Shown: positions 27,485-48,971 of the stretch, piece after piece
Layout of the letters: every line of letters starts with the position of its first letter
Position numbering within the stretch: position 1 is the stretch's first letter
From: Alphaproteobacteria bacterium
Lineage (GTDB): Bacteria > Pseudomonadota > Alphaproteobacteria > UBA828
NCBI GenBank assembly: GCA_965237415.1
Contig: CBDEFM010000002.1
Coordinates: forward strand, 1,088,001-1,152,000
DNA length: 64,000 nt
Direction: 5' to 3'
The notes under the pieces: model-generated
Databases searched by the model: none
What the model was told of the DNA's origin: nothing
Seen by the model: only the letters and a program-made list of their open reading frames with translations
Position numbers and translations under genes: made by a program

Positions 27485-29837
<2,353 letters not shown>

Positions 29838-29871
29838 GGCGGAGGCCTATTTCTCTCTTTGCCGCCGCTAG

Positions 29872-31401: not shown

Positions 31402-31402
31402 C

Positions 31403-31960
31403 TCAGATCCCCTTCATCGCCAATTCGAGATTCTGCAACTTGGTCCTAAGCGAGTTGTCGAGCATGCGTGAGCCGACGCGCACCGTGAGGCCGCCTATCA
31501 ACGAGGGATCGACCCGGGACTCGAGCGTCACGTCGCGTCCGACGATGGTACGGAGCGCGTCCCTCACGGCATCAAGGTGATTGGGCTTGAGCGGCACGGC
31601 AGACGTCACTTCGGCCGACACCTCGCCGCGATGCTCGGCGAGCTTCGCCTGAAACGCCGCGATCATGTCGGTCAACAGGGAGACCCGCCGGTTGCGCGCC
31701 AGCAGCGCGACAAAATTCCTGACGTACTGGTTGGTTCCCAGCCGCTCCAGTACCGCGTCCAGCGCCTTACCCTGCTCGGCGCGGGACAGCGTCAGGCTGC
31801 GGATCACGCGCTTGAGGTCGTCGCTGCCGTCCACCAGTTCGCGGATGGAGTCGAGGTCGCGCTCGATCTCCTCGATCGCGCCACGCTCCCGCGCAAGCTC
31901 GAAGAGCGCGGTCGCGTAACGATCCGCGAGACCGGCTCCCCCGACCGATTGCCCAGCCAC
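31403..31960 (-). CDS. atpH: ATP synthase F1 delta
   Basis: [26 protein letters not shown]. Confidence 0.96.
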
Positions 31961-32360
31961 CGCTACTCCCTAGTTCTAGCTCCGGATGCGCCGCCACTCG
32001 CGGTGATTCCGCGGCGCGGTCGCAAAAAAAGCCTCGCGGGCGCCCGTCCCGGACAAGGCGTCGGATGGGTAGCACACTCACCCGCCCCACGCAACCGCCG
32101 GAGAGGCCTTGGACCGAGCCTCTCCAAGCCAATCAGTCGTGCCGCGCAGGGGTGGACTTCGACAGGAATTTGCTGCTTGAAGGGAAGCCTGCCAATAGGA
32201 TGCAGCCAAGGAACCATCGAGGAGATCGAGCGAATGTCGCTGAAGGACGCGGCATAGCGACCCGCCCCCATTTGGAGAGCGGCAGCTCGGCCGTACTCTC
32301 CAGGTCGAGCGACGGCGAACGACCACGCACGTGCTCGCTCATCAATTCAAGGAGGCCACC

Positions 32361-32747
32361 GTGTTCAAGACGTACAATCCGGCCGATATCGCGGGGCCGT
32401 TCGGCCACTACGACCATGGCGTCGAGGCGGTCAACGTGTCGCGCCTGCTGCACATATCGGGGCAGGTCGGTACCGATCCCGACGGCACCGCGCCCGACGA
32501 CGTGGCGGCGCAAATCGAGTGCGTCTGGCGCAACATCGAGGCCGTGCTCGCCGAAGCGGGCATGACGACCGGCAACATTGTGCGCACCATCACCTACATG
32601 CTGGATGCCGACTATGTGCCGCTGCTCGGCGCCGCCCGCCAACGGCACTTGGGCGCCGATCACAAGGCTGCATCGACGACCATCGTGGTGGCCGGTCTCG
32701 TCCGGCCCGAGTGGAAGGTGGAGATCGATGCCGTCGCCGTGGCCTGA
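32361..32747 (+). CDS. RidA/YjgF family protein
   Basis: AAGGAGG RBS then GTG; ISGQVG, LVRPEWKVEIDAVA. Confidence 0.88.
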   Translation: MFKTYNPADIAGPFGHYDHGVEAVNVSRLLHISGQVGTDPDGTAPDDVAAQIECVWRNIEAVLAEAGMTTGNIVRTITYMLDADYVPLLGAARQRHLGADHKAASTTIVVAGLVRPEWKVEIDAVAVA

Positions 32748-32806
32748 ACGGCCGCCCTCATCGCGCGCGGGACACGTACAACGTTAATTTCGAAGCGGGA
32801 TTCGCC

Positions 32807-32841
32807 GGGATTAAGTGGGATTAAGTGGGATAAGTGGGATT
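32807..32841 (+). repeat. Tandem GGGATTAAGT repeats
   Basis: gggattaagt gggattaagt gggataagt gggatt. Confidence 0.85.
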
Positions 32842-32903
32842 CCGTGAGACGGACGGCGGCCGGCTCGGAATGAGGGGTCGCGCACGCCCGGGTCGCGCGA
32901 GCC

Positions 32904-32960
32904 TGAAAGGTCTCGCGCGCGAAATAATGGTCGTGCGCGCGAAATGAGGGGTCGCGCGCC
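32904..32960 (+). repeat. Candidate transposable-phage end: TG followed by two 20-bp direct repeats
   Basis: TGAAAGG TCTCGCGCGCGAAATAATGG TCGTGCGCGCGAAATGAGGG. Confidence 0.55.
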
Positions 32961-32972
32961 CCCGGCCTGCGC

Positions 32973-33692
32973 TCAGACCTTGATGAAGAAGTTGAGGGCG
33001 ATATAGGGCGGCATGTTGTTGTGGGGCTGTCCGCCGCCGGCGTGGCGCACGCCATAGGTGCTGCCGGCGGCCACCGTGGACGCGGTGCCGGTTGTGCCGG
33101 TGAGCCTGTTTCGATCCGCGCCCGCGCCGTCCTGGCGCACGCCGCCGAGGACGTGGCCATGCGTCGGCATTTCGGCCTCCGTGAGGGTGTGCGTCTCCGC
33201 GCCGCCGGTCGCGCCGGCCCGGCGGGTTGCGGTGGCGCCGAGCGCGAAGCGGTCCCTGAGATCGGGCAGGTTGAAGGTGGTCGAGCCGTCGCCGGGGCCG
33301 TAGGCGGTGCCGATGACGGCGAAGAGGTCGGGATAGGTGGCACGGCTCACGGCGGAGCCGTTGCAGGTCAGCCATCCGTTGGGCCTGGCGCCGGCGTGCA
33401 TGGCGACGGTGCCGGGCGGCACGGCCTGCGGCGGTGTCGGCTGTGGCGGAAGCTGCGCGCTCGGCACTCTGCCTGAGCCGTCGAGGGAGGCGATGCCGCC
33501 GGCGACGCCGCGCCCGAGCTCGGCGTCCGGCACGCGGCGGCGGCCGTCGAGGGAGGCCACGCCGTCGGCGCTGCCGCGCCCGGCGATGATCGTCTTGACG
33601 CGCTGAAAGAGCTTGAAGAACTCCGCGCGGGGCGGGCGGTCGGTGCCGGAATCGACGCCGGCGGTCGAGAGATCGTCCGTTGGCCAGGGCAT
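32973..33692 (-). CDS. Phage tail fibre protein with tail-collar domain
   Basis: PPGTVAMHAG..PNGWLTCNGSAVSRATYPDLFAVIGTAYGPGDGSTTFNLPDLR; C-terminal QPHNNMPPYIALNFFIK. Confidence 0.88.
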   Translation of the reverse strand: MPWPTDDLSTAGVDSGTDRPPRAEFFKLFQRVKTIIAGRGSADGVASLDGRRRVPDAELGRGVAGGIASLDGSGRVPSAQLPPQPTPPQAVPPGTVAMHAGARPNGWLTCNGSAVSRATYPDLFAVIGTAYGPGDGSTTFNLPDLRDRFALGATATRRAGATGGAETHTLTEAEMPTHGHVLGGVRQDGAGADRNRLTGTTGTASTVAAGSTYGVRHAGGGQPHNNMPPYIALNFFIKV

Positions 33693-33706
33693 GTGCGCCT
33701 CCTTTC

Positions 33707-34030
33707 AGCTCGGAATTCTCACCGATGTCATGGTCTGCGCGGCGCATTCCGGCCGACAGGGCAGGAAAGGCGCGCAGCGCGTCGCGCGGATACGCGCGCC
33801 TTCGGCGCGACGCCGGGGACATCGGGCAAGCGGCTTGACGAACCCTGTCGGCCGGAAGGCGCCGCCCTTCGGGTCGCGCCCAGACGCCCGCCCGCATCGT
33901 GCGCTCCGCGCGCGTCCCGCGCGGCGTCGCGGGCCTCAACCGTATTCCCCGATACGCTTTTCGGCCCGCTCCTGGCGGATCGAGCGTCTGGGCGCGACGC
34001 AGGCCGTGACATCGGTGAGAACTCCGAGCT
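33707..34030. mobile_element. 324-bp MITE-like element with 33-bp terminal inverted repeats and internal stems
   Basis: 33707-33739 pairs with 33998-34030 (30/33); perfect 15-bp internal pairs 33747-33761/33843-33857 and 33873-33887/33984-33998. Confidence 0.7.
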
Positions 34031-37000
34031 AGTCGGCAACGCCGCGCACGACGGCATCGACCACGGCGTCGGCGGGGTTGCCGTCGCCGTCGTAGATGCG
34101 GATGCGCGTCGGGCTGTTCTTGCTGAGCAGCGTCCACGACCAGCCCGCGCCGACCGATTGCAGGGTGATATCGAGGTCGGTCACGAAGCGCAGGTCGGTC
34201 GGCACGATGCGCCCTGTCGCCGCCGTTCCCTGCCACTCGGCGGTGTTGCGATCGAGCAGCTTGCGCTCGGCCGACGGCGCATGGGCGGACCAGCACAGAT
34301 GATCGAGGGAGAGCACCCGGCTGCCGTCGCCGCTCACGCGCCAGCGCAGTTGCAGCCATCGCCCGGCGACGGTGGTTCCTTCCGCATAGGCGGCCCATGA
34401 GGCGGCGGCCACGGCGGCCGCGCTCGCGCCTGCGCGGTACTCGAAGGCGCCGTCGCCCTCGATCTCGGCGGACCAGCGCAGCGCCACGTCGAAGGCGATG
34501 CCGAGATCGACCGGCTCGGCCGCGAAGGCGATCTCGGCGGCGGCGCCGGTGCCGTTGCCGGCGCCCCACGACTGCCAGGCGTCCCATGTCGTGAGATCGT
34601 CCCATGTGTAATCGCCCGCGCCCTCAAGCGCGTCGTAGCCGTCATCGGAGCGCTCGATATCGGTAAGCCTGCCGGGCCAGCCGGCGGCGGAGGGGCAGCG
34701 CCAGAGCAGGGCGTCGCCCTGGCGCTGCGGCCCGAGCTCGGCGACGATGCGCACGTCGCCGGCGGAAAGCCTGCCGCCGGTATCGATGGCGCGGGCGGCG
34801 AAGACCCAGGTTCCCGGCGACGGCTCGACCGTCTCCAGCGGCGAGGCGGTAAGGTGGCCCCGATGCAAGGGCGTCAGTCGATCCCAGCCAAGCGGCGTGC
34901 CGCCGGCGGCGCCGTAGCGGATCAGGACGCCGGCGAGGTCCACATCGGCCGGCGGTTGCCAGCGCAGCCTGCGGGTGCCGTCGCCCAGCACGTCGATCAG
35001 GAAGTTGGTCGGCACGCCCGGCGGGGCGAGGGAGCCCACGATCTCATAGCGTGCGGTGAAGGGAGCGCCGGCGGGCGCGGCCTCGGTGCCGGGTGTCACG
35101 GTCAGGGTGAGGGTCCCTTGGGGCGGCGCGAGCCATTGCGCGGCCGTCTCGCCGTCCACGAGGCGGGCGACAATGCGGGGCGGGGCGTCGTCGACGGATG
35201 CCCGCACGATACCGCCGCGCCAGTCGCCGGCCGTGGTGAGCACGGCGGCGATCTCGACCGCGAAGCCGGCGCCGACGCGCACCTGGGCCTCGGCGAAAGC
35301 GACGCCCAGCACCCGAGGCGCACGGGCGGAAAGCACCGGCAAGGGCGCGGAGAGATCGGCGGTGGCGGCGGCATAATAGGCCTCCACCTCGTCGATGGCG
35401 GTAAAGCGCACGCGCCGGTCGGTAGCGGGCTCGACCGCCGTGATGCGCGCGCGCACCGGCGGCAGGCTCGCATCGTAGAGGCGCCACAAGGTATCGAGGG
35501 GACTCGCGCCTTGGGCGCCCGGCGCCTCGGGGAGCGGATCGTCGAGCTCGATCTCGGCGGTCTCGCCCTGCGCGCCGCCCGCCGCCGAGACGGCCGTTCG
35601 GTGCACCGTGCCGTCCGGCAGGCGGAACAGCATCTCGCCGCCGGCGCTGGAGGTGGTCGCGCCGGAAGGCGCGCGGAGATCGACCGCGCCGGAAGGCGCG
35701 CGAGAAAATGTCGCGCCGGAAGGCGCGCGGAGATCGACCGCGCGGTCGAGGATCACGTGCGCGGCCGTGCCGCCGGCAAGCCGGCCGGCGGCGCCGCCGT
35801 CGATCAGCGAATGGGTGATGTGCACCACGTCGCCGCGCGCGATCGCAAGCCCTTCGGCCGCCATCTCCCAGCTCAAGCGCCGGCGGTGGTAGAGCTGGCG
35901 CGCGGCTTGCAGATTGCACGCGATCGCCGCGTGTTCGGATGAGGTCACGCCTTCGAGCGTGATCGTGGTCGTGGCCGCCGGCGGCCCGTTCACACCCGGC
36001 ACGAGGCGGCGGAGCGTGTTGAACTGCCAATCGAGGTCGGGCTCGATATAGCGCACGGCAATCTCGTCCGCCGCCTGGCCTGCGGCATACTCGACCGCTA
36101 ACGAGCCGGCGACGATGTTGCCGGGCGTCACCAGCGCCGTGGCCGGGCGGCCGGCATCCTCCCAGACGACGCCGAGCTTGCCGGTCTGCCAGCTCGGGCT
36201 CGCGCGGCCGCATTGGGCGATCGTGGTCAGCACCTCGGCATGGGAGCGGGTGCGGTCGAGCACCAGATTGCAGCCGAGCCCCTGGCCCTCGCACCATGCG
36301 CCCCAGGCCTTGATCGAGTCCTCGTCGATGCGCGTATCCGGCAAGCCGACGCCGGCGACCAGGCGGCCGGCGATACGCAGGCCCCGCGCATACCAACGGA
36401 ACAGCCAAGCCGGATTGGAGGTCGCGGCAGGTGCGGTCCAGCGGGCGCCGTCCCACGTCGGCACGCGCTGGCGCACCATGGCGGAGAGACGATCGAGGCG
36501 GCCGGAAAGCTGGCCGGTGGCGCGGATGCGGAGCCCTAAGCGGGTCTGGCCGCTATAGTCGCCGATGTCGATCTGATAGGCGCGCAGCGCCGCCCAGGCG
36601 AGCTCGTCGTGCACACGATCGGAGGGGTCGGGGTCGGCGGTGCGGCGCACGCGCACGGTCCACGTGCCGGCGCTGGCGAGGTCATAGGCGAAGGTGCGGC
36701 GCAACGGCGCTTGGCTGTCGTGCATGAGGGTGATCGTGCGGCGCTGGGTGGCCTGGCCCGGCGCCCGCCATTCGATCTCGATCTCGGCGCTGTTGGCCTG
36801 AATCTCGCCCTCGTCGTCGATGCGAAAGAGGCGGCCGGTGATATCGACGCCGATGCGCCGCGTGCCGGCGGCGGTCGTGCGCTCAAGCCATTGCGTGTCG
36901 TCGAGGGCGCCGCCGGCGATGCTGTCCACGTTGCCGGCGACGAGGGTAATGCGGCCTCGGGCGTCGCCGAACTCGGTCTCGACTTCCTCGTAGGAATCGA

Positions 37001-37790
37001 GGGCGGTGGTGCCGATCCTGAGATCGTCCACGGCGAGGTCGCCGAGGCCGAAGTTGAAAATCTGATGGAGGACGTGATCGTCGCCCGAGATCTCCGTGTA
37101 TTCCGCGGCGCCGAGGTCGGGAAAGACGCGGTGCGCGCCCAACACCAGAAGCAAGGGCTCATAGGCGCGCGCGCGGTTGGCGCCGCCGCTGAGGCTGTAG
37201 ATGGGCTCAATGGCGCGTGGGCGGGCGGCATCGGGCAGGATCGGCGGGGCGATGGCGTTGACGATGAGGCCGCCGGCAATGGTGATGGCGGCGCCGGCGA
37301 GCGTTTGCGCCCACGTGGCGGTGAAGAGCAGGGGCGGCACGACGATGGCGGCGACGAGCACGCCGATTTGCAGGATGGTGCGCAGCGGATTCTTGTCGCC
37401 GCCGCCATCGGCCAGCGCGGCGCGCAGAGTCACGATCTCGCCGCCCTTGAGCGGGGTCTCGCGCCACGCCGCGCGGGCGACAGGGCGGCCGTCCACGGCG
37501 ACGGCTATCTCCGCCCCACCGCTGCGCTGCTTGAGGGCGGTTATCCATTCCTGCTCGATCAGATCGGCAACGGTGGCGCCGATCGCGCGCCCACGCGCGT
37601 CAACGCGCGACGGAAGCGCACAGACGCGCATCTCGCGCCCTTGGGCTGTCAGTCCATGGGGCCAGAGATCGGTTGTTATGAGCTGTTCGGTCGCCCTGCC
37701 GCTGGACTGCTGGAGGGCGATATCGCTCGCCCTAGCGGCGGACTCATTTACCGCGCGCGCAGGGGCGCGCGACAGGGCGGTTATCTCCAT
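34029..37790 (-). CDS. Tail tip / host-specificity protein J with an N-terminal gpI-like domain
   Basis: AVDGRPV..W...LKGGEIV..GGGDKNPLRTIL (gpI-like); YSLSGGANRARAYEP, FNFGLGDL, ATSNPAW, LQAARQLY, RGDVVHITH. Confidence 0.85.
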   Translation of the reverse strand: MEITALSRAPARAVNESAARASDIALQQSSGRATEQLITTDLWPHGLTAQGREMRVCALPSRVDARGRAIGATVADLIEQEWITALKQRSGGAEIAVAVDGRPVARAAWRETPLKGGEIVTLRAALADGGGDKNPLRTILQIGVLVAAIVVPPLLFTATWAQTLAGAAITIAGGLIVNAIAPPILPDAARPRAIEPIYSLSGGANRARAYEPLLLVLGAHRVFPDLGAAEYTEISGDDHVLHQIFNFGLGDLAVDDLRIGTTALDSYEEVETEFGDARGRITLVAGNVDSIAGGALDDTQWLERTTAAGTRRIGVDITGRLFRIDDEGEIQANSAEIEIEWRAPGQATQRRTITLMHDSQAPLRRTFAYDLASAGTWTVRVRRTADPDPSDRVHDELAWAALRAYQIDIGDYSGQTRLGLRIRATGQLSGRLDRLSAMVRQRVPTWDGARWTAPAATSNPAWLFRWYARGLRIAGRLVAGVGLPDTRIDEDSIKAWGAWCEGQGLGCNLVLDRTRSHAEVLTTIAQCGRASPSWQTGKLGVVWEDAGRPATALVTPGNIVAGSLAVEYAAGQAADEIAVRYIEPDLDWQFNTLRRLVPGVNGPPAATTTITLEGVTSSEHAAIACNLQAARQLYHRRRLSWEMAAEGLAIARGDVVHITHSLIDGGAAGRLAGGTAAHVILDRAVDLRAPSGATFSRAPSGAVDLRAPSGATTSSAGGEMLFRLPDGTVHRTAVSAAGGAQGETAEIELDDPLPEAPGAQGASPLDTLWRLYDASLPPVRARITAVEPATDRRVRFTAIDEVEAYYAAATADLSAPLPVLSARAPRVLGVAFAEAQVRVGAGFAVEIAAVLTTAGDWRGGIVRASVDDAPPRIVARLVDGETAAQWLAPPQGTLTLTVTPGTEAAPAGAPFTARYEIVGSLAPPGVPTNFLIDVLGDGTRRLRWQPPADVDLAGVLIRYGAAGGTPLGWDRLTPLHRGHLTASPLETVEPSPGTWVFAARAIDTGGRLSAGDVRIVAELGPQRQGDALLWRCPSAAGWPGRLTDIERSDDGYDALEGAGDYTWDDLTTWDAWQSWGAGNGTGAAAEIAFAAEPVDLGIAFDVALRWSAEIEGDGAFEYRAGASAAAVAAASWAAYAEGTTVAGRWLQLRWRVSGDGSRVLSLDHLCWSAHAPSAERKLLDRNTAEWQGTAATGRIVPTDLRFVTDLDITLQSVGAGWSWTLLSKNSPTRIRIYDGDGNPADAVVDAVVRGVAD
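35657..35742 (-). repeat. Three in-frame RAPSGA hairpin units inside J
   Basis: CGCGCC-TTCC-GGCGCG three times; translates AVDLRAPSGATFSRAPSGAVDLRAPSGA. Confidence 0.85.
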
Positions 37791-38203
37791 CGGTAGACGC
37801 CTTCGAGCACGAGCGCGCGGCGGTCGAGATCGCGCAACGGATGCAGGATCGAGCCCACGCCCTTGAGGCAATGCAGCACGTAAGGCGCGCCCCCGACGGC
37901 GCACCAGATGCCGATATGGTGGCCCACGCTGTGCCGCCTGGCGGCGGCCGCCATCAGCACGCCGTCGCCCTCGCGCGGCGCCCCCATAGTTCCGCGCGCC
38001 TCCGGCGCGACGCGCACCGCGTAGATGCCCTTGAGCGCCGCGATCTGGCGGTCCCACGCGCGCGTACCCGTCTCATGGGCCGGGAGCGCGAGCTCGCGGC
38101 CGAAGCGCTCGCGCATGACCGCCGCCACGAAGTCGGCGCAGTCGTGCCGCCCCTCGACGTAAGCGCGCCCGATGTAGGACTCGGCCCAATGACTCTTATT
38201 CAT
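37781..38203 (-). CDS. NlpC/P60 tail assembly protein (gpK-like)
   Basis: WAESYIGRAY..HDCADFV, REGDGVLM, HHIGIW, VLHC; Cys-His-His present. Confidence 0.82.
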   Translation of the reverse strand: MNKSHWAESYIGRAYVEGRHDCADFVAAVMRERFGRELALPAHETGTRAWDRQIAALKGIYAVRVAPEARGTMGAPREGDGVLMAAAARRHSVGHHIGIWCAVGGAPYVLHCLKGVGSILHPLRDLDRRALVLEGVYRWR

Positions 38204-38204
38204 T

Positions 38205-38295
38205 TCCCTCATGCGCCGGGCGCTCGCTCCGCTCGCTTGGCTACGCGCTGCGCGCGCGGCGCGGTCGCGCCGTCCGGGCCTGCGGCCCGGCCCCC
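38205..38295 (+). repeat. About 90-bp dispersed palindromic repeat, copy 1
   Basis: tccctca..cgccgggcgctcgctccgctcgcttggctacgcgc...ccgggcctgcggcccgg. Confidence 0.85.
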
Positions 38296-38333
38296 TACCG
38301 GCCCACGCCGTACTTGTTGCCGCGCATCCCACA

Positions 38334-39935
38334 TCAAAACAGCCCCGGCGAGGTCTGCGGATCGTGGCGCAGCGTTACGGCGGCGCGGCCGAGCAAGGGG
38401 TCGAAGCCCAAGCGCGCGGTCACGCGCTCCTGATCGACCGCCATGCCGGCCACGTCCAGCGTCACCTCCCACTCGACCGGCGGATCGTCGATGTCGAGCA
38501 CCTGCATGACGCGCACGCTGGCGCCGACGCCACCGCCTGTCGCCTCGATCCATTGCGTGAGCGCGCGCCCCACGTTGTCGATGGCAAGCTCGGCCTGCGG
38601 CGCCTGGCCGGCGATATCGTCGGCGAGCCGGGCGTCGAAGCGGAGCGCGACATAGTCGTTGCCCTCGATCGCGCGCCCGATCGTGTCGTTGATGACCCGC
38701 ACCGGCTGGGCGATGGCGGGATGGCTGATCTCAAGCGCGGTGAGCAGGCGATCGGCGGGCGCGGCCTCGCGCAACGCGCGCCGGTAGCGGATTTCGGCCG
38801 GGCGCACGCGCTCGATCCGGGCGGAGACCTGCGCCCTGCCGGCGGCGGCGAGGCCCCGGAGCGCGCGGACGTAGGCGATGTCGAGCCGGACACGGGCTTG
38901 CGCCCTGCCCGCGGCGGCGGCGGTGCCCCGCACCATGCGGATCGCGGGGGTCACGCGCAGCACGCGCGCGCGCACCTGCGGCGCGCCGGCCTCGGCCACG
39001 CCGCGCGTCTCGACAACAGTGCGGGCCGGGCGCGCCAGCGCGAAGATAAAGCGCTCGCCATCGGCAATGTCGTCGATGAGCGATAACAGGCCGACCGCGA
39101 GCGGGCCGAACTGAATCATGTTGCCGCCCTCGCGCCCGTGATCGCTTGCAGGAAACGAGGCGGCGCCGTCGTGTGTCTGAATGTAAAGAGTGAGATCGGC
39201 GCCCGCGCCGCCGGGGCTGAAATACGCCGCAAGCGAAAGCGGATCGTTGTCGTTGATCGCGAGCATCGTTCCGTTGCGCCGCCTGATCCGGGTGATCGCG
39301 GCCTCGTCCGCGCCGAGGCCGAGCTCGCCGTCGAGCAACGCGCCCACGGCGCCACGCGGCGGCGAGGCATAGATCGTGCCGCCGCTGCCGCTGCCGGCGC
39401 GGATCAGCGCGAGCACGTCGAACTCAAGCCCGCGCCCGTCGAAGTCCGAAAGCGCCAGCGCCGGCACGACGTCGATCCTGGCGCGGGTCTCCGCCCCGCC
39501 GGCGGCCGCGCCGCGCACCGCGTGCACCGCGACATCCGGGAGGCCGTCGGTAAGGGTCAGCGTGAAGTCGCCGACCGCGGAAGCGAACCACGAGCTCATC
39601 GCGGCGCCGTTGTCCGGCGACCAGAAATAGGGCTCGCTGGCGTCGGCGAAGCTATTGTCGGCGTTGCCGGGGCCTTTCAGCACGAGGGTCGAGGCCTCGA
39701 CCGTGAAGGTAAAGGCGCTGTCGGCCGTCTCGAATGCCTCGGTGAACTCGGGCCCGACGTTCTCCGGGTCGGCGGTGGCGGTGGCCGAAAGGCGGACCTG
39801 GAAATTGTTGCCGATCCCGCGGATGAAGCGCAGATAGGCGGTGACCCCGCCCTCGATCAGGGCGGGGTCGATCAGCGCCGCCCCGGACCATCCCTCGCCG
39901 CCGGGGCCGGCGAGCTCGAGAACCTGCGTCGCCAT
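38334..39935 (-). CDS. DUF1833-like (gpL-type) tail-tip protein with a long N-terminal extension
   Basis: C-terminal LLTALEISHPAI..PVRVINDT..AELAIDNVGRALTQWIE..RHDPQTSPGLF. Confidence 0.72.
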   Translation of the reverse strand: MATQVLELAGPGGEGWSGAALIDPALIEGGVTAYLRFIRGIGNNFQVRLSATATADPENVGPEFTEAFETADSAFTFTVEASTLVLKGPGNADNSFADASEPYFWSPDNGAAMSSWFASAVGDFTLTLTDGLPDVAVHAVRGAAAGGAETRARIDVVPALALSDFDGRGLEFDVLALIRAGSGSGGTIYASPPRGAVGALLDGELGLGADEAAITRIRRRNGTMLAINDNDPLSLAAYFSPGGAGADLTLYIQTHDGAASFPASDHGREGGNMIQFGPLAVGLLSLIDDIADGERFIFALARPARTVVETRGVAEAGAPQVRARVLRVTPAIRMVRGTAAAAGRAQARVRLDIAYVRALRGLAAAGRAQVSARIERVRPAEIRYRRALREAAPADRLLTALEISHPAIAQPVRVINDTIGRAIEGNDYVALRFDARLADDIAGQAPQAELAIDNVGRALTQWIEATGGGVGASVRVMQVLDIDDPPVEWEVTLDVAGMAVDQERVTARLGFDPLLGRAAVTLRHDPQTSPGLF

Positions 39936-39965
39936 CTATCGTCTCCCGACGCCGCCGGCTTGGGC

Positions 39966-40358
39966 TCAGGTGCCGGCCGGGATACGCACGACGACAGCGC
40001 CGGCCGGTACCCGCAGAATGTCGTCTTCCGTTTGTTGCGAGACCGTGGCGGGCATGCCCTGGTCGTTGAGCAGGCGGCCCCAGGCGCGGACGTTGCCGCC
40101 GGCGGCGGCCGTCATGATGGCGAAGTGGGTGGCGTTCTCGACCAGCGCCGTGGGCGCGAAGTCCACGGCCGCGAGGTTCTTCGCCTCGCCCGCCGGATTG
40201 CCGGCCTCGCGGCCGAGGTCGATTTCCGCCCGGCCGGCGGCCGCAATGAGATTGTTGCCCGCTGCCGTCGGGTCGGCACTGGCGAGCGCCAGATGATCGT
40301 CGCCGGCATTGGCGATGGCGAGCACCGCCCGATTCTGTTCCGCCGCTGCAATAGGCAT
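39966..40358 (-). CDS. Hypothetical phage tail-region protein
   Basis: AAGGAG RBS; HLALASADPT, ATHFAIMTAAAGGN recall small phage tail structural proteins. Confidence 0.65.
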   Translation of the reverse strand: MPIAAAEQNRAVLAIANAGDDHLALASADPTAAGNNLIAAAGRAEIDLGREAGNPAGEAKNLAAVDFAPTALVENATHFAIMTAAAGGNVRAWGRLLNDQGMPATVSQQTEDDILRVPAGAVVVRIPAGT

Positions 40359-40417
40359 GATCTCTCTCCTCTTAGTGTTCCCTCAAGTAACGGACGCTTG
40401 CAGGGATGTGGACGATG

Positions 40418-40510
40418 AGGGGTACCGGGCCGCAGGCCCGGACGGCGCGACCGCGCCGCGCGCGTAGCGCGAAGCCAAGCGAGCGGAGCGAGCGCCCGGC
40501 GACTAAGGGA
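40418..40510 (-). repeat. About 90-bp dispersed repeat, copy 2 (inverted)
   Basis: Reverse complement nearly identical to copy 1. Confidence 0.85.
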
Positions 40511-40523
40511 TATGAAAAACGAC

Positions 40524-40898
40524 TCACAGCCCGACGCCCTCAAGATCGAGGGACGCCTCCCACGTGCGCCGGCCGTCGCCACCGATGCGCGCGGTGTATT
40601 CGATCCCGCCGGCGCCGCCGCGCACGCGGACCTGGTGCACGCTGCCGCTTTCCGGCGCGGTCCAGGCAAACCAGCGGTGGGCGCAGTCAGCGGCCCAGGC
40701 GCGGAAGCGCCGATAGTCGCCGTCGTTCGCGATCAAGACGGTGATCGAGAGTGCGGTGAACGCGCTCGCGTAGCGGCGTTCCTGGCGGATCAGCCCGTCG
40801 TCGAAGGGCGTGCGGTCCACGTCGTTATCGTCGGCGACGGTGTGGCCGTCCGCCTCGACCGATGCATAGGAAGGCCAGACAAGGCCGGCGGCGCTCAC
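40524..40898 (-). CDS. Minor tail protein (gpM/distal-tail-like)
   Basis: WPSYA, VDRTPFDDGLIRQERR, FRAWA..WFAW; lies directly after the tape measure gene. Confidence 0.65.
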   Translation of the reverse strand: MSAAGLVWPSYASVEADGHTVADDNDVDRTPFDDGLIRQERRYASAFTALSITVLIANDGDYRRFRAWAADCAHRWFAWTAPESGSVHQVRVRGGAGGIEYTARIGGDGRRTWEASLDLEGVGL

Positions 40899-40907
40899 TT
40901 ATTCTTT

Positions 40908-41003
40908 TCCCTCAGTCGCCGGGCGCTCGCTCCGCTCGCTTGGCTACGCGCCGTTCGGCGCGGCGCGCAGTCGCGCGCTCCGGGCCGCTGCACGGCCCGG
41001 CCC
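40908..41003 (+). repeat. About 90-bp dispersed repeat, copy 3
   Basis: tccctcagtcgccgggcgctcgctccgctcgcttggctacgcgc...ccgggccgctgcacggcccgg. Confidence 0.85.
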
Positions 41004-41013
41004 TTCACCCGCG

Positions 41014-41832
41014 TCATGGGAGTCCTCCGCCGAGCTCGCGTTGCATGGTCTGCCTGATCGGCCCGCCGCGCCGGATATCGTCGGTCACGACGGTCACGAT
41101 CAGGCCGCGCGGATCGAGGCGCACCTCGCGGCTTACCTCGCGCTGCGGCGTGCCGCGATTCTCGAAGGTGATCTCGACGGAAGGCGCCGCGAGGGTGGCC
41201 CCACGCGGGAGCACGGTTTCGCCCGCCTGAGCGATGATCGGCACTTCGTCCGGCCGCAAGCCGGCGATACCGCCGTCCGGCCGGAGGCCGGCAATACCGC
41301 CAGAGTGGAAGCGTGGCGCCAGCGCGAAGACGGCCGGCGGCACCGCGCGCCTCACGCCGCCGGGCTGGCCCGCGACGGCGCCGGCGTGACCAACGCCGGC
41401 TTGCAAGCGACCGAACACGGCCGAGCCGGGGGTCGCCCCGCCGCCGAGTGCGCCGAACAGCAGATCGGTGAGCGGTTGGGTGATGTAGCGCCGCGTCGCC
41501 AGCCGGGCGAGGTCCGCGATCACGGAATCGACGAAGCCCGAGAACGAGACCCTGCCCGTGGTCACGAAACGGGCAAGCGCCGACTCCATGGCACCGAAGA
41601 CGCTCTCGGCTGCGTCCCTGGCCTGGTCGAGGGTGCTCCCGCTCTCCCGACCGAGGGCGCCGAGCGCCGTCGTGAGCGCCTGAGCCGCGCCGGTCGCGCC
41701 CGTCAGCGCCGTGCCGGCCTCGTCACCCCGCCGCGCGGAATCGCCGAGGGAACGATTCAGCGCCCCGATTCCTTTGATCGCCTCGCGCATGTCCGCACGA
41801 ACGCGAAGCGCGAGTTCGAGATCAGCGGGCAT
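41014..41832 (-). CDS. Miniature tail tape measure protein
   Basis: N-terminal DLELALRVRAD; C-terminal lambda-type MESALARFVTTGRVSFSGFVDSVIADLARL, APRFHSGG, DEVPIIAQAGETVL. Confidence 0.8.
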   Translation of the reverse strand: MPADLELALRVRADMREAIKGIGALNRSLGDSARRGDEAGTALTGATGAAQALTTALGALGRESGSTLDQARDAAESVFGAMESALARFVTTGRVSFSGFVDSVIADLARLATRRYITQPLTDLLFGALGGGATPGSAVFGRLQAGVGHAGAVAGQPGGVRRAVPPAVFALAPRFHSGGIAGLRPDGGIAGLRPDEVPIIAQAGETVLPRGATLAAPSVEITFENRGTPQREVSREVRLDPRGLIVTVVTDDIRRGGPIRQTMQRELGGGLP

Positions 41833-41844
41833 CGCTCATCTCCC

Positions 41845-42030
41845 TCAGACTTGCTCGGTCGCCGCGCGGTAGAAGAGGACGATCTGCCGCCACGTCAGGC
41901 GCTCGCTGAGGTCGAGGTGGCCGCGTCCGTGGCCGGCACGGACGAGGGTGTCGAGCACCCGGTAGAGCGCAACGGGCTGGCCTTCTCGCCCTTCGCCCGC
42001 GTCGCCACCTGGGCCATGACGCGGCGCAAA
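41845..42030 (-). CDS. Putative -1 frameshift extension (GT part) of the tail chaperone
   Basis: The -1 frame is open from the T8 run to a stop 13 nt before the tape measure start; LVRAGH..LTWRQIVLF. Confidence 0.55.
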   Translation of the reverse strand, partial: FAPRHGPGGDAGEGREGQPVALYRVLDTLVRAGHGRGHLDLSERLTWRQIVLFYRAATEQV

Positions 42031-42431
42031 AAAAAGCCGCCGTTCGCCGCCCACATCGCCTCCGAGAGCGCGCGCCCGTCCGCATCGCTCAGGCGGGCAA
42101 GCCAGGCCGCGTCCCGGCCGCACGCCCGGGCGGCGAGCTCCAGCCAGAGCGACGCATGGGCAGCGAGCGCGCCTTCGATCGCCAGCGCGTCCGGCCCTTC
42201 TGCCTCTTTTCCGCGCGCGTCCCGCGCGACCTCAGCGTCCGTGCCGTCTTTGCCGGCCGGCACCAGGGCCGCGAGGGCAGCGAGCAATGGCCGCGCCAGC
42301 GCCGTCGCCTCCAGCCCTTCGCGAAAGCGGAACTCCCGCACGGTGAGCGTGACCGGCTCGCGGGTCTCGGGGTCGCGCACCGTCACGTCGCAGTCCGGGA
42401 ACAGGACCGAGAGCTCGTCGACCCCATCCAT
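41895..42431 (-). CDS. Tail assembly chaperone (gpG-like)
   Basis: Lies between tube and tape measure; ELSVLFPD, LTVREFRFREGL, WAANGGFFLRR. Confidence 0.75.
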   Translation of the reverse strand: MDGVDELSVLFPDCDVTVRDPETREPVTLTVREFRFREGLEATALARPLLAALAALVPAGKDGTDAEVARDARGKEAEGPDALAIEGALAAHASLWLELAARACGRDAAWLARLSDADGRALSEAMWAANGGFFLRRVMAQVATRAKGEKASPLRSTGCSTPSSVPATDAATSTSASA

Positions 42432-43321
42432 CAGGCGGCCTGCCCGTCGATGTAGAGCGCGGGCCGGCCGTCGCCCGGCTCCAGCATCGAGACGGCGAGC
42501 CGGATCTGCTGCTCGGACGAGCGACCGTCGAGAAGGGTCAACCCGCCGGCCGGTTGGATCGAACAGCGCGGTGCGTAGATATTTCGCCCCCGGCCCTCGG
42601 CTGCATCCTCGATGTAGCGAAAGCCGCCGATCACCTGCCGCAGCGCACCCTGCACCTGGTCGCGCGCGCCATCGTCAGGCGTGTAATCGAGGGCGACATC
42701 GGTGCCGGCCGCGACGCCGGCCTTCGCCGCGTAGAGTGGGTGATCGGGCGGCAGCCAATAGATGCGGGCGCGATCGTAGTCGACGATGTATTGCCCCTTC
42801 TGCTCGGTCTCGCCCGCGCCGGCCGCAAATTGCCCGGCGGCGATCGCTTGCGTTGTCGTCACCGGCGTTTGCGCCGTGGTGGAGATAGTCACGGCAGCGA
42901 TCGCGGCCGCCTTGTCGGCCGGTGATGCCAAACTGAGGACACCGGCGGGCCGGTCGACCCCACCCAGTTGATGCCAGCGGCCGGGCCTCAGGACGGCAGG
43001 CTCGCCAGAGACCGGTGCGGCCGCGTTGAGCCTTCTCATCTCGCCCACCGTGAAGAGCGCCAGGTTCTCCAGGCTGAGGTCGTGGAGCGTGAGCGTTACG
43101 GTGCGCGTCACACTGCGGGCAATGCGCGCAAGCTCGCGTGCGACAGGGCCCGAGCCCGAAAAGACGGTGGTCTCTTCGGTCGTGATCTCCAGGGCAGCGC
43201 CCACGGCGTCGCCGAGGTAGCGCTCGCCCGTGAACGCACCGCCTTCGTGGAGGTCGAGATAGACCTCGCCGGCGCCGATCACGATGTTGTCGGAGCGCTT
43301 GTCGATGTTTCGCGCGGTCAT
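42431..43321 (-). CDS. Major tail tube protein (non-contractile)
   Basis: VIGAGEVY, ERYLGD, LHDLSLENLALF, YIVDYDRARI, ALYIDG; no sheath gene nearby. Confidence 0.75.
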   Translation of the reverse strand: MTARNIDKRSDNIVIGAGEVYLDLHEGGAFTGERYLGDAVGAALEITTEETTVFSGSGPVARELARIARSVTRTVTLTLHDLSLENLALFTVGEMRRLNAAAPVSGEPAVLRPGRWHQLGGVDRPAGVLSLASPADKAAAIAAVTISTTAQTPVTTTQAIAAGQFAAGAGETEQKGQYIVDYDRARIYWLPPDHPLYAAKAGVAAGTDVALDYTPDDGARDQVQGALRQVIGGFRYIEDAAEGRGRNIYAPRCSIQPAGGLTLLDGRSSEQQIRLAVSMLEPGDGRPALYIDGQAA

Positions 43322-43333
43322 CTTGGTGTCTCC

Positions 43334-43810
43334 CTATTCCGTTTCCACGACGCCGGCGCGGGCGACGCGGCGGATTTCGTACTCGTCGAGCCATTGCATC
43401 CGCCCATCCTCCAGCGAAACGAGCCGCCCGCGGCGGAAGGACAGCACCTCGCGCTGCCCCGGCGGCGTCCAGCCGGCGAGCGCTTGCCTGGCGCGGGCGA
43501 GCAAGGCGGAGAGCCGCTCCCGCCCGCGCGCGCCGCCGCGGTCGTTGGGCGCCGCGACCATCACTGAGACGCCGACGCGCACGACATGTTGCACCGGCGC
43601 GTTCTCGACCCGGCGCGTCGTGCTCTCCTCCGCTTCGTCGGAGATCGGGAGCACCAGTGCTGCCGGCGTCTTGGGCCAGGCTGTCAGCGCCGCCGTATCG
43701 AGTGCGCTCAGCACGGCGGCGAAGACAGGGTCGCCACCGTCTGCCGTGAGCGCCGCGAGCCGCTCGGCCATGGCATCGGCGAGGTGCATCTCCAGCGCCA
43801 CGAGAGTCAT
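43334..43810 (-). CDS. Tail terminator protein (Mu gp37-like)
   Basis: TPAALVLP, ARQALAGWTP, GRMQWLDEY. Confidence 0.7.
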   Translation of the reverse strand: MTLVALEMHLADAMAERLAALTADGGDPVFAAVLSALDTAALTAWPKTPAALVLPISDEAEESTTRRVENAPVQHVVRVGVSVMVAAPNDRGGARGRERLSALLARARQALAGWTPPGQREVLSFRRGRLVSLEDGRMQWLDEYEIRRVARAGVVETE

Positions 43811-44031
43811 GGCCCCGCCCTTTCGAGCGCGCGCGCGACGATGCGCGCGATTGCATTGCGGTCGCGCTCGTCGATGCCGAGATAGGGACGCGCCGGGATC
43901 TTCGCCCGTCTGCCCTTGCCGGCGAGGTCACCGAACTGGTGGATGGCGGCGTAGACGACGTTCGATCCCACCTCGACCGCACGCCCACCGTCGGTGACCA
44001 TGTGCGCGATCGAGCCACGCAGCCGGCCGGT
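43807..44031 (-). pseudogene. C-terminal fragment of a Mu gpG-like virion morphogenesis gene
   Basis: TGRLRGSI..VGSNVVYAAIHQFG..IPARPYLGI; N-terminus missing. Confidence 0.82.
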
Positions 44032-44992
44032 AGTCCACGCGCCTGGGCAGGCCCTCGATGAACCGTTCCAGAATGGCGGCGGGCCGCATCCGCACATCGC
44101 CGCCCGACGCCGACGCGAAAGCGATGGTGGCGTGTTCGCCTGCGGCGCCCTCGTCGGCGTTGCCTTGGTCGTCCCCGAGGGCGGCGAGCAGCGCGGTCAG
44201 CGCCGGCCGCTCCGCCGGCAGGATGCGACCCGCTTCGACATGGGGCGCAATCGCCGCGTCCGCAGCCCGCCGGCGGTCGTCGGCCGCGGCCGCGGCCTCC
44301 CGCGCGAGCAGCGCCGCTTCCCGCGCCGTGAGCGAGGCTTCGTGTTCGTTCGTGTCCCTCAGTCGCCGGTCGCAGGCTCCGGGCTGCTTCGCAGGCCGGC
44401 CCACCTTGCCTCCCACTTCATCGATGGCTTCAGGGACGCCGTCTTCCTCTCCGGCCTCTCCCCGCCCCTGAAGCGCGGAGAGCGGGACGAGGCTGTCGCC
44501 GTCTTCGTCCCCTCCCGGCCCCAGGGCGCGGAGAGAGTCGGGATGATCTGAGGGTGAGTCGTCCGGGGACACCGCCCCAGCATCGTCAGTAAATGCGACC
44601 ACCGTCTCGGGCGCGGACGCGAAGCGGGTCGGCACAAGCCCCGACACCGCCGGTGCTCGGCCGCCCAGGAATCCCACGTGGCGCAGCGTGTCGCCCTGCA
44701 GCGCGATCGAGCGGCCGGCGTAGCGCCCGGCCTCGACCGCCTCGCGGAAGGCCGGCGCGATATCGCGGAGCTTCGCCTGCAGCCGGTCGCCGACGCGGCG
44801 GAGCCCGTCGATCCAGGCGAAGGCCGGGGCGTCCGTCTCAGGATGGCCCACGACCACGGGCGCGGGGTCGGCGACGGCGTGCGCGTCGACGATCCGGTCG
44901 AGCCGGGCCTCGTCGATGGCAACGTCCCGGCCCGCCATGTCGCGCCAAGTGCCGGCGCGGCAGACGTCGATCCAGCCGTCGAGCGCGCTCAT
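43928..44992 (-). pseudogene. Mu-like head maturation protease/scaffold (gpI), C-terminus truncated at the deletion junction
   Basis: WIDVCRAGTW, APVVVGHP..DAPAFAWI, GRYAGRSI, LRHVGFLGGRAPAVSGL, EAGRILPAE, LPRRVDY, then an out-of-frame tail. Confidence 0.78.
44355..44558. repeat. Repeat-derived in-frame insertions in the protease gene
   Basis: 44355-44402 is a partial copy of the 90-bp repeat; 44446-44558 holds two units resembling the 62788 palindrome (LSALQG.GE). Confidence 0.6.
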
Positions 44993-45395
44993 CACGCGAC
45001 CCCTCGCGTGCGGAATCGAAGGAGCGCGCTCCTTTGCGTGTGGAATTGATGAGGCGCGCCCCGGATTGCCCCGGTGGCGCGTGGGGTCTGGGTCCCGTGG
45101 TAGGGAGGCGATGCAGCGGTCAGAGCATTCATGGCGCGGACAATGCCCTGCGCCGAACCCCCTGTGCACCGCACCATGGTCCGGGGCGATTTCTGACCGC
45201 TGCGGCTTAGCTATCCGCCTCTCGACCCGTCTCCTCTCCTAGAACTGAAGAGCTGGATTTGGATTAGCCATGAGCACGCACGTTAGGCCACGTGCATCGC
45301 AACTTCCCAATCAATAAGGCGGAGACACTCCCGCCCCGGCCTCATCCTAATCGCCCAACACCTCCCGAATACCGGGCGGCGCAAGCGACGCATCT

Positions 45396-45686
45396 TTACT
45401 TGGTTGCAGGCTCGCAAACGAGCCGGTTACGCCCGCGACGAAGCAGATAGCCACCCCGCGGGATCGCCAGCGTGCCTTCCCGGACGAGGGGCCAGAGCAT
45501 GTCGACGATGAGCGCGGCGGCGTGGTCCTCCTCTACCACCTCCTGCTTCGGTTGCGTGGAGAGCCACGCAGCGAACGCGCGCTCACCGATCTCGTCGCCC
45601 ACAGACTTGCGCAGTGTGTCGAGTTTGCGGCGTTGACCCCTGGTTAACGTGCTCTCGTCGATCTTGGACGCAGATCGTCCCGCCAT
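45396..45686 (-). CDS. Hypothetical protein (96 aa)
   Basis: GGAGGT RBS and clean ORF; flanked by AT-richer DNA. Confidence 0.7.
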   Translation of the reverse strand: MAGRSASKIDESTLTRGQRRKLDTLRKSVGDEIGERAFAAWLSTQPKQEVVEEDHAAALIVDMLWPLVREGTLAIPRGGYLLRRGRNRLVCEPATK

Positions 45687-45923
45687 GATCTCACCTCCAT
45701 CGAATGCGTGAATTTCCTGAACTTACCGCCATATAGCAGACTTATCGCTGAATGAAATCAGCAGATGTATCGATACGCATTATAGGCATACCAATCAATT
45801 TTGGGGGTATATTCTGCGGGCGTGAAACTGTGAGAAAGATGACGATTTCGACGCGGCGATTCCTTCGTCTCACTAGTGATATTCCTACTGAGTGATGCAG
45901 GGAAAATGCCTTCTGATGTGCCG

Positions 45924-46709
45924 CTATTGCGCTGTCCACCCGCCATCGATCAACAGGCTTGCACCCGTGATCAGGCTGGCTGCGTCGCTTGCAAGAAAAA
46001 CAATGGCGCCCATCACGTCGGGAAGTTCGCCGAGGCGGCCGAGCGCGATCCGGCTCAGCGTGTCGTCTTTGAAGGCAGGATCTTCGAGAAACGGCACGGT
46101 CATCGGCGTGGAAATAAAGGTCGGACCAATTGCGTTGACCCGGATGTTATACGGCGCAAGATCCATCGCCATCGCCTTGGTCATGCCTTCGATCGCGTGC
46201 TTGGTGGTGCAGTAGACCGTGCGCCTGGGCCCGCCGACGTGGCCCATTTGCGAGGACATGTTGATGATGACGCCGCCCCTCTTTGCCGCGACCATCTCCC
46301 GTGCGACCGCCTGGGCGCAGAAATAGGCACCGCGCACGTTGATGCCCATGACAGCATCGAAGTCCTCCACCGTCACGTCCAACAACGCAGCGGGACGGTT
46401 GCCGCCGGCATTATTGATGAGGATATCGACCGGTCCGAGTTCCGCGAGGGCCGCTGCGGCTCGTTCCACATCGGCGACGTCGAGAGGGAGGATCGCCGCA
46501 GCGCCGCCTGCCGCCTCGATTTCACTCGCGACCTGCGCCAGGGCCCCGCGTCCCCGCGCCGCGAGCACCACGTGGGCACCCGCCTCCGCGAGCGCAGCTG
46601 CAGAAGCACGACCAAGGCCGCGACTCGCGCCGGTGACGAGCGCCCGCTTGCCGTCGAGACGGAAGGAGGGCGTCTTGGGCAGCGCGTCCTCGACGGGGAG
46701 ATCAGGCAA
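45924..46709 (-). CDS. SDR family oxidoreductase
   Basis: [23 protein letters not shown]; TTG start overlapping the upstream stop. Confidence 0.9.
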
Positions 46710-47991: not shown

Positions 47992-48060
47992 CGGAACTCC
48001 TGCATTCTATTGGCACCTCGGGGTGCGAGACCGCGTGCGCGGCCGGATAGCGCTCCGGGC

Positions 48061-48345
48061 TCAGGTCCCAACGGTGACTCCCCGCCAGAAAGCGACGTGG
48101 TCCCGGATGTTTTCGGCCGCAGGCTTCGGGTCGGGGTAATACCACGCGGCATCCGCATTGCGCGCGCCTTCGACCTCGATCGAATAATAGTGAGCCGTGC
48201 CTTTCCAGCCGCAAACGGTGGTCGTTGGGCCCCGCGTGAGGAACGCCAGGTTCACGGTACCTGGCGGGAAATAGACGTTGCCCTCGACAGTTTCGTAACG
48301 GTCGGACTCAGCGATGACCTGCCCCTGCCAGAGTGCACGCGCCAT
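48061..48345 (-). CDS. DUF427 protein
   Basis: VEGNVYFP, CGWKGTAHYY, AAWYYPDPK. Confidence 0.9.
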   Translation of the reverse strand: MARALWQGQVIAESDRYETVEGNVYFPPGTVNLAFLTRGPTTTVCGWKGTAHYYSIEVEGARNADAAWYYPDPKPAAENIRDHVAFWRGVTVGT

Positions 48346-48905: not shown

Positions 48906-48971
48906 CCTTCGCCCCCGGATGCGTCTAGTGATCTTTGCTCAGGCTCCGCAGGGACCCGTGGGCACCCGTGG

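Follow-up and report, generated by a model that had tools for sequence, protein, structure and literature searches.

A tail gene array lacking a head in one assembly is probably part of a dispersed, domesticated GTA-like or PBSX-like element of Mu/B3-like siphoviral descent

RcGTA, a gene transfer agent (GTA) of the alphaproteobacterium Rhodobacter capsulatus, has an HK97-type head, a g15 protein with a GTA_TIM domain and a short tail. F-type tailocins such as F-pyocins and monocins are non-contractile tails that lack a head altogether, a state that is conserved and selected, and their regulators and lysis cassette are adjacent. PBSX-like Bacillus prophages, encoded by a contiguous myovirus-type cluster, are phage-like bacteriocins that package host DNA. 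To our knowledge, only few independent domestications of a phage into a GTA have been described, and none of them started from a transposable phage. Here we analyze a 64,000-nucleotide (nt) stretch of DNA (the window) on contig C2 of an alphaproteobacterial genome assembly (GCA_965237415.1, referred to as G000), in which an unbroken array of siphoviral tail genes runs on the minus strand from position 44097 down to 32973. A first-pass annotation had interpreted this array as a domesticated, headless tail of a transposable phage. Taking into account the related genomes, we consider it probable that the array belongs to a GTA-like or PBSX-like element that was domesticated long ago from a B3/Mu-like siphovirus, is spread over multiple loci and is broken or misassembled in G000. 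A selected headless tailocin is not supported by the sequence data.

The comparison included 21 genomes of the same genus (G000 among them), the relatives being metagenome-assembled genomes (MAGs) of apparently uncultured, sponge-associated Rhodospirillales; homologues in G000 were searched with blastp against six-frame open reading frames (ORFs). In all ten relatives whose locus was fetched, the genes from the protease to the collar fibre form one contiguous cluster (locus C) in the order protease, scaffold/decoration protein, capsid, orfX, gp36-like adaptor, Neck1, terminator, tube, G/GT chaperone, tape measure, distal tail proteins, J-like protein and collar fibre. The fusion of protease and Neck1 seen in G000 occurs in none of the ten, and a head segment of about 3.1–3.2 kb between the two genes is retained in the other six genomes of the genus for which matches to both sides are listed. 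Hence, the search for the same headless locus in related genomes, proposed along with the tailocin interpretation, came out negative. The locus as such is not confined to one strain: it occupies one chromosomal site in seven of the ten relatives, with hisD, a short-chain dehydrogenase/reductase (SDR) gene and an ORF of 96 amino acids (aa) upstream, and RidA followed by atpH is located downstream in eight. The tail array of the window is likewise flanked by the atp operon, RidA, hisD and the SDR gene. A capsid orthologue is present in 16 of the 20 other genus genomes (full-length at 92–96% aa identity in 15, truncated at 98% in G004) and was not found in G012, G015, G016 and G018, while the tube gene is full-length in 13 of the 20. 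In all nine loci that hold the whole tape measure gene, it is an open frame of 241–278 aa from stop to stop. Among viral sequences in IMG/VR, one 5-kb contig matched at 94% and everything else at 43% or less.

The absence of capsid, portal, terminase and lysis genes noted in the first-pass annotation holds for the window, and not for the genome, since a search of G000 for genes acting in trans recovered all four. A Mu-type portal and a complete large terminase subunit (TerL) constitute locus B, and regulatory and lysis genes constitute locus A (Table 1). Of 15 genus genomes searched, 12 have the portal gene as a single open frame with 84–96% identity, in each case on a separate contig or at a great distance from locus C, and it was detected in none of nine genomes outside the genus. 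In the vicinity of locus C, no portal gene was found at any of 16 loci and TerL at two (G003 and G002). In these two genomes locus A and genes for a gp27-type small terminase subunit (TerS) and TerL adjoin locus C in inverted orientation, a layout that is more phage-like. The genomic context of locus B is, in this order, hydantoinase, racemase, a divergent MetE-like gene, TerL, in some cases a repeats-in-toxin (RTX) protein, portal and pyc in seven of eight fetched relatives. At least 10 genus genomes have locus A, with 79–97% nt identity, and its distance from the portal gene is usually 15–22 kb. In G000 the loci are at least 75 kb apart, with the lysis and regulator genes 75 kb from the tail genes, and in G004 the distance is about 1.65 Mb. 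Because the loci are separated by 75 kb to more than 1.6 Mb, no particle would be expected to carry the whole gene set, and the system would thus resemble a GTA or a PBSX-type defective particle in its behavior, not a phage. No MuA-type transposase and MuB were found together with the other modules in one genome of about 35–40 kb, as a functional transposable prophage would have; the MuA DDE_2 domain (PF02914) is absent from G000 and occurs in three of the 21 genus genomes, at unrelated loci.

Substitution rates indicate purifying selection on these scattered genes. Ratios of nonsynonymous to synonymous substitutions (dN/dS; median of NG86 estimates over pairs with dS below 1.5; Table 1) are not near 1 and range from 0.13 to 0.63 for the tail genes. 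Within the cluster, constraint is strongest on the capsid gene (0.09 versus 0.08 for hisD), and the collar fibre evolves fastest. Further host controls are RidA and atpH near locus C (0.16 each), pyc at locus B (0.11) and Dps, which is located between the genes of locus A (0.08). The median dS of the element matches that of the host gene hisD (0.42 versus 0.46) and varies in step with it, with a Pearson r of 0.76 over 21 non-independent pairs. At the level of sequence, such a pattern is the hallmark of a single ancient acquisition, with vertical descent and lasting constraint on the genes for head, packaging, tail, lysis and regulation alike. Of the earlier idea of a domesticated tail particle, domestication and the Mu-like origin thus stand, whereas the entity that appears to be conserved and selected is one with a head and a packaging machine: the capsid is constrained like a housekeeping gene, and portal and TerL are conserved.

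With RcGTA the element shares phage-derived head, tail and packaging genes without a replication, integration or transposition module, vertical inheritance under purifying selection (as judged from synteny, dN/dS values of 0.09–0.63 and a dS close to that of the host), and a distribution over several loci which would exceed the capacity of one particle. A very short tape measure (about 270 aa in this element) is another common feature. By contrast, the ancestries of the two are unrelated. The portal of PF06074, the B3-like capsid (phrog_1005) and the Gam, GemA and Mor genes are Mu-type features, and the absence of PF13547, the GTA_TIM domain of RcGTA, from G000 also places the element outside the RcGTA-like family Rhodogtaviriformidae. 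Moreover, the element keeps a phage-type S24 repressor and a Mor-like activator.

The nearest cultured relatives are B3-like transposable siphoviruses of Pseudomonas such as JBD67 (NC_042135.1), with 38–39% capsid identity, which agrees with the Mu-like assignment made initially. Of the gene set of a Mu/B3-like prophage, the element has the Mu-type portal, a gp28-type TerL, Gam, GemA, Mor, and protease, scaffold and capsid of phrog_976, phrog_673 and phrog_1005. JBD67 has the same kinds of genes in the same local order (TerL, portal, protease, scaffold, capsid, adaptor, terminator, Ig-like tube, chaperone, tape measure) and likewise encodes Gam, GemA and a late activator. It differs in that its genome is one contiguous 38-kb unit with transposase A/B, TerS beside TerL and an F-like minor head protein, whereas the element described here is scattered and lacks the transposase and, in most carriers, the F gene. 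The tape measure of JBD67 comprises about 1090 aa and that of a Chromatiales relative 742 aa, as compared with about 270 aa here. PBSX resembles the element in being chromosomally fixed, conserved and non-propagating and in having kept phage-derived genes for head, tail, terminase, repressor and lysis. A possible output is killing in place of gene transfer. Yet the element is siphoviral, Mu-derived and distributed over multiple loci. It is plausible that it represents a new, independently derived GTA-like or PBSX-like system.

We propose that the genes for transposition were lost from an ancient siphoviral prophage of Mu/B3-like type, which was then inherited vertically by a sponge-associated Rhodospirillales genus, in which it would persist as at least three separate loci: A with regulators and lysis genes, B with TerL and portal, and C, the head–tail operon, whose distal two-thirds would correspond to the tail module of the window. 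Upon loss of repression, the Mor-like activator might turn on the late operons, possibly via the same near-palindromic box situated about 43 nt before an ATG at locus C, the portal gene and the lysis cassette. This would yield short-tailed capsids that are filled by a headful mechanism and set free through lysis. Tail length follows a rule of about 1.5 Å per tape-measure residue, which predicts a tail of roughly 40 nm for a tape measure of about 270 aa. In the G000 assembly, the promoter-like block and the first 322 or so protease codons are fused directly to the C-terminus of Neck1 and the tail genes. A second copy of the upstream 25.8 kb, 1.1 Mb away, has the whole protease, scaffold, capsid and most of orfX, and about 0.69 kb (the orfX end, the gene for the gp36-like adaptor and the 5′ half of Neck1) is missing from both copies.

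The box is part of a block of about 85 nt which is near-invariant in 11 aligned loci, including those of G003, G002 and G008 whose flanks differ. A nhmmer profile built from 11 of the 15 relatives' loci found it upstream of the protease gene in all 15 that cover the site (E values from 1e-18 to 1e-25). Weaker copies are located upstream of the portal gene (C2:1229536 in G000, and eight of eight relatives) and of the DUF5675 lysis operon (C2:1209582, and again eight of eight). The geometry of the box resembles that of activator-dependent Mu middle and late promoters. Based on its positional conservation we infer that the box may serve as a promoter or operator at the three operons.

How the headless state arose in G000 can be traced to an exact break between window positions 44026 and 44027. 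This break marks the edge of an inverted duplication of 25.8 kb; the second copy (C2:1–25793) reaches base 1 of C2 and differs from the window copy at about 10 positions. There, the whole protease gene is followed by those for scaffold/decoration protein, capsid and orfX, most of the latter being kept, at a distance of 1.1 Mb from the tail genes. In comparison with the closest relative, G004, homology stops at C2:28440 and resumes at C2:1132032 (window 44032), and neither place contains the intervening 687 nt of the cluster in G004. In intact relatives this segment comprises the end of orfX, a Mu gp36-type head–tail adaptor gene (PF07030) and the 5′ half of Neck1 (PF05069). The cut in locus C of G000 reflects either a very recent rearrangement uncoupling heads from tails or an artefact of assembly or strain mixture. 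The headless array is the state of a single assembly, and its reality is uncertain.

An artefact, with a contiguous cluster in the true genome, is a serious possibility to which we assign slightly less than an even chance; it concerns the local arrangement only and is compatible with the domestication reading. It would account for the fact that the duplicate extends to a contig end, and the two termini of contig C1 likewise repeat internal regions in inverted orientation (C1:1–15493 matches C1:257808–273345, and the last 13.5 kb, C1:699888–713356, match C2:2224311–2237779). The genome is rated as 6.35% contaminated, and a G000-like contig with 98–99% identity is present in another bin (G012:C2). 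Furthermore, Logan contigs of two runs (X15 and X17) leave the window sequence at 44027 and turn into an intact protease gene, with 29 of 30 letters as in copy B; among the listed Logan contigs, which are short and come from related samples (best share 0.59), none spans position 44027 and no joint is reported there. On the other hand, both novel junctions consist of unique sequence, and no long repeat by which an assembler could be misled is common to the protease and the tail sides. The differences between the two copies and the loss of 687 nt from both places likewise speak against an artefact. A remnant of an insertion sequence (IS) is located about 570 nt beyond C2:28440 (C2:29007–29405), as expected of a real IS-linked rearrangement, and the element it stems from has at least 20 copies in G004. 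If the cut is real, G000 could make at most unjoined heads and short tails.

Two side observations concern the same assembly. Three of the four contig ends of G000 are near-identical inverted copies of internal regions, which suggests unresolved structural variants or assembly problems. The contig G012:C2:1–6426, which stops inside the collar-fibre gene, is 98–99% identical to window positions 27000–33365, whereas the atp operon proper of G012 reaches only 86%; it probably stems from a G000-like strain binned with G012.

Several findings weigh against a functional, domesticated element. The box belongs to a dispersed repeat of about 60 copies in G000 (E value of 0.05 or less), and for 27 of these the next 600 nt downstream contain no supported ORF. 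Of 20 ORFs downstream of box copies that were scanned, 17 encode unrelated housekeeping functions and three have no family match. No box was found upstream of TerL in G000. Because the dispersed copies head unrelated ORFs or none, a promoter role of the box is unproven, and the idea that it marks a coherent late regulon was rejected on the same grounds (gyrA, proS, genes for aminotransferases and major facilitator superfamily transporters, and others being found downstream). A search for the Mu F gene (PF04233) was negative for G000 and for most carriers, and no TerS gene lies beside TerL except in G003 and G002. Finally, disruptive lesions occur in several carriers. In G004 there is a frameshift, and a deletion extends from about residue 302 of the protease to residue 30 of the capsid. 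In G020, the protease gene carries a 1.8-kb insertion and the genes for the 130-aa, 533-aa and K-like proteins are gone. The terminator gene of G009 holds a 4.4-kb insertion, TerL of G008 one of about 5 kb, and the K gene of G011 a stop codon. In G018 nothing but the J-like and collar genes is left, next to the atp operon, and G013 has a capsid gene without a tube orthologue.

Could the element thus be an ordinary cryptic prophage in slow decay, that is, a set of functionless leftovers awaiting deletion? Among the 11 genomes with a full reading of locus C or B, five do have lesions (G000, G004, G020, G009 and G008). The remnants in G018 and G013, the three further genomes in which no capsid gene was found (in two of them, G012 and G015, homology at the site ends after atpH), the IS elements, repetitive extragenic palindromic (REP) and miniature inverted-repeat transposable element (MITE) sequences that are common in and near the loci, and the scattering of the element through rearrangements all fit such a scenario. 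Nevertheless, we regard it as unlikely. At a dS of about 0.4–0.5 neutral sequence would be full of stops and frameshifts, yet there are 13–17 orthologous open frames per structural gene with dN/dS values of 0.09–0.39 (0.53 and 0.63 for the 533-aa protein and the collar fibre), the capsid being as constrained as hisD. The T8 slippery tract and the peptide encoded in the −1 frame are retained in a genome with 67% G+C. The lesions differ from lineage to lineage and are therefore recent; none was seen in G019, in locus C of G008 or in G001.

Still less probable, and in our view very unlikely, is the original proposal that the headless tail operon itself is selected as a short, F-type-tailocin-like particle directed against other bacteria or acting on the host. 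Taken alone, the window does resemble an F-type tailocin locus: the promoter-like block, the protease stub and ten tail genes form one uninterrupted same-strand array of open frames without a complete head gene, the chaperone frameshift site, tape measure, NlpC/P60-type residues, tip and receptor-binding fibre genes are intact, and the adaptor and Neck1 genes needed for joining a head are lost or truncated. Siphoviral tails assemble independently of head genes, and fast evolution of the J-like and collar proteins would be consistent with an arms race over surface recognition. However, this headless junction, which may even be an assembly artefact, was found in G000 alone, the cluster of the ten fetched relatives being contiguous with the capsid gene and six further genus genomes keeping the head segment, and the 99.96% identity of the flanking duplicate copies implies an event so recent that selection could not have acted on it. 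The genes for capsid, portal and TerL are conserved genus-wide, still exist in G000 and are among the most constrained ones. Moreover, the flanks of the array are housekeeping genes, and an adjacent regulator and lysis cassette is lacking. A "headless tail module" in one window can hence stem from local rearrangement or assembly and need not be a tailocin. A satellite or phage-inducible chromosomal island was dropped as there is no integrase and the element, found at the same site in seven of ten relatives, is not mobile.

Returning to the domesticated multi-locus element, it is tempting to speculate that a B3/Mu-like siphovirus was turned into a new GTA-like system of independent origin at the base of the genus. 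This would entail three dispersed loci, three operon starts with a Mor-type promoter-like box, a tail shortened about fourfold, and a gp27-like gene in 2–15 box-preceded copies which perhaps act as scattered packaging start points; the split in G000 would be a natural experiment uncoupling head and tail. As a complete scenario this is possible but doubtful. If true, it would reveal a new origin for GTA-like elements, in uncultured animal symbionts, a candidate route of gene exchange or antagonism within sponge microbiomes, and a case of convergent tail shortening. A full-text literature search returned no report of a Mu-derived GTA, of this element, or of such a case in sponge symbionts. The retrieved parts of one article mention FluMu-type transposases in sponge-associated viruses and contain nothing on this element (PMC11410982).

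Genes of the window were predicted by ORF calling guided by G+C content at third codon positions (GC3) and annotated by Pfam and PHROG scans (Table 1). They comprise the ten consecutive tail genes with open frames, and two broken fragments as the only head-related genes, as described in the first-pass annotation.

Table 1. Features of the tail array, its surroundings and the associated loci in G000. Locations are window positions unless preceded by C2; dN/dS values are medians.
Feature	Location	Strand	Family match and remarks	dN/dS
Conserved ~85-nt promoter-like block upstream of protease	45107-45191	-	near-palindromic core GGACCATGGTGC, then GGTGCAC, centred ~43 nt before an ATG
Head maturation protease fragment, N-terminal ~322 codons	44027-44992	-	phrog_976 positions 32-322 of 415	0.31 (protease)
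Neck1/tail-completion (Mu G-like) gene, C-terminal part	ORF 43807-44097, Neck1 portion 43807-44026	-	PF05069 positions 75-148 of 148; N-terminal half gone
Tail terminator	43334-43810	-	PF23840, E 4e-19; 84-99% aa identity in 14 relatives' loci	0.13
Major tail (tube) protein, Ig-like domain	42431-43321	-	phrog_807, E 9e-27	0.19
Tail assembly chaperone G, 178 aa	41895-42431	-	DUF6631, phrog_1442	0.26 (chaperone)
Chaperone -1 frame extension T	G + T span 41845-42431, T stop 41845-41847	-	T8 slippery tract 42028-42035
Tape measure, 272 aa	41014-41832	-	PF09718	0.33
124-aa virion protein, distal tail	40524-40898	-	phrog_384, E 6e-12; 74-87% aa identity in relatives	0.28
130-aa Gp80-like protein	39966-40358	-	PF23140, E 9e-11	0.32
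533-aa minor tail protein	38334-39935	-	C-terminal DUF1833 (L-like): PF08875 at aa 391-523, phrog_396	0.53
K-like NlpC/P60-fold protein, 143 aa	37781-38212	-	invariant C25/H99/H114; fold search	0.36
J-like central tail fibre/tip protein, 1253 aa	34029-37790	-	PF24801, PF13550, phrog_31 at E 2e-101; 58-95% aa identity	0.39
Collar-domain tail fibre, 239 aa	32973-33692	-	PF07484, E 1e-23; phrog_9116	0.63
MITE-like insertion, 324 nt	33707-34030	.	39-nt terminal inverted repeats; between J-like and collar-fibre genes; many further copies in genome
REP-like repeat	38195-38296	.	same family at 40420-40519 (inverted) and 40898-40951
25.8-kb inverted duplicate, window copy	44014-64000 (C2:1132014-1157806)	.	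99.961% identity over 25,795 nt to C2:1-25793
Whole protease, 388 aa, at the other copy	C2:24816-25982
Scaffold/decoration protein, 118 aa, and major capsid, 324 aa	protease to capsid C2:24816-27326		phrog_673; phrog_1005, E 9e-70, and weakly PF03864	scaffold 0.15, capsid 0.09
Portal, Mu-type, 442 aa (locus B)	C2:1229641-1230969		PF06074	0.18
TerL, 454 aa, complete (locus B)	from ATG C2:1226498		phrog_2/PF17289; aligns with JBD67 gp28 over ATPase motifs	0.24
Locus A	C2:1208141-1213281		DUF2730-like, holin-like, DUF5675, S24 repressor, 113-aa ORF, Gam (PF07352), GemA (PF06252), Mor-like (PF08765)	holin-like 0.13, DUF5675 0.29, repressor 0.25, Gam 0.30, GemA 0.41, Mor 0.19

The frame of the protease fragment continues past the break to a stop at 43928, and a full Neck1 gene of 149 aa is found in G008. 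The start of the J-like gene was placed at the ATG at 37790. Neither Pfam nor PHROG gave family support for two names used in the first-pass annotation, "gpM-like" (the 124-aa protein) and "I/J fusion" (the 1253-aa protein). In the 533-aa protein the DUF1833/minor tail domain is confined to the last 140 or so residues, the N-terminal 355 or so being without family, and G003 has only a 178-aa ORF for this gene, which matches aa 356–533. The REP-like and MITE-like copies within the array are all intergenic, which bears out the earlier statement that repeat insertions spare the tail frames. Apart from the genes discussed, no further phage gene was detected in the window, the 38 other ORFs scanned being housekeeping genes (atp operon, hisD) or without Pfam family, and a search of positions 30000–48000 against Rfam returned no family.

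The slippery site of the tail assembly chaperone is indeed retained. From the T8 tract the −1 frame extends over about 65 codons and ends just ahead of the ATG of the tape measure gene, and the encoded peptide is conserved among relatives. Over 12 pattern-matched loci the tract has eight T residues in nine, seven in two (G004 and G002) and ten in one MAG. The T7 and T10 variants alter the frame that is read without slippage; they could reflect homopolymer sequencing errors or true variation.

The Cys-His-His residues ascribed to an NlpC/P60 domain are also preserved, C25, H99 and H114 of the K-like protein being unchanged in seven orthologues. This protein has no Pfam or PHROG match, and a sequence-profile search of the PDB gave only weak hits (Spr/MepS, E value of 0.04). 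Foldseek was clearer: for an AlphaFold2 model with a predicted local distance difference test (pLDDT) score of 79, the 11 best matches are all NlpC/P60 peptidases, with MepS/Spr at the top (E values of about 1.5e-3 to 4.5e-3; template modelling score, TM, of about 0.5). Its assignment as an NlpC/P60-type protein and putative peptidase is supported by this model.

Mu gp27 small-terminase-like genes (PF11985) are multiplied in the genus, with ten copies in G000 (for example C2:1398714–1399208, C2:3851326–3851820 and C2:668041–668523) and 2–15 in carriers of the element, none in G012, G015 and G016, and one in G018. The box precedes eight of the ten G000 copies at an E value below 1 and four at 0.05 or less, and many of the box copies that lack an ORF still hold the first codons of a gp27-like gene. 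At locus B, G000, G004 and G005 encode a 450-aa protein with RTX calcium-binding repeats between TerL and portal (C2:1228074–1229426 in G000; about 78% aa identity, dN/dS 0.54), which the other fetched relatives lack at this position. The J-like gene contains an in-frame tandem triplication of a 27-nt unit (window 35656–35743, minus strand; copies 100%, 71% and 100% identical). Directly upstream of the protease gene in G000 and most relatives lies the 96-aa ORF mentioned above (window 45396–45686, minus strand), which has no family match, is 69–95% identical at the aa level with a median dN/dS of 0.17, and has at least eight paralogues in G000 at 72–79% nt identity.

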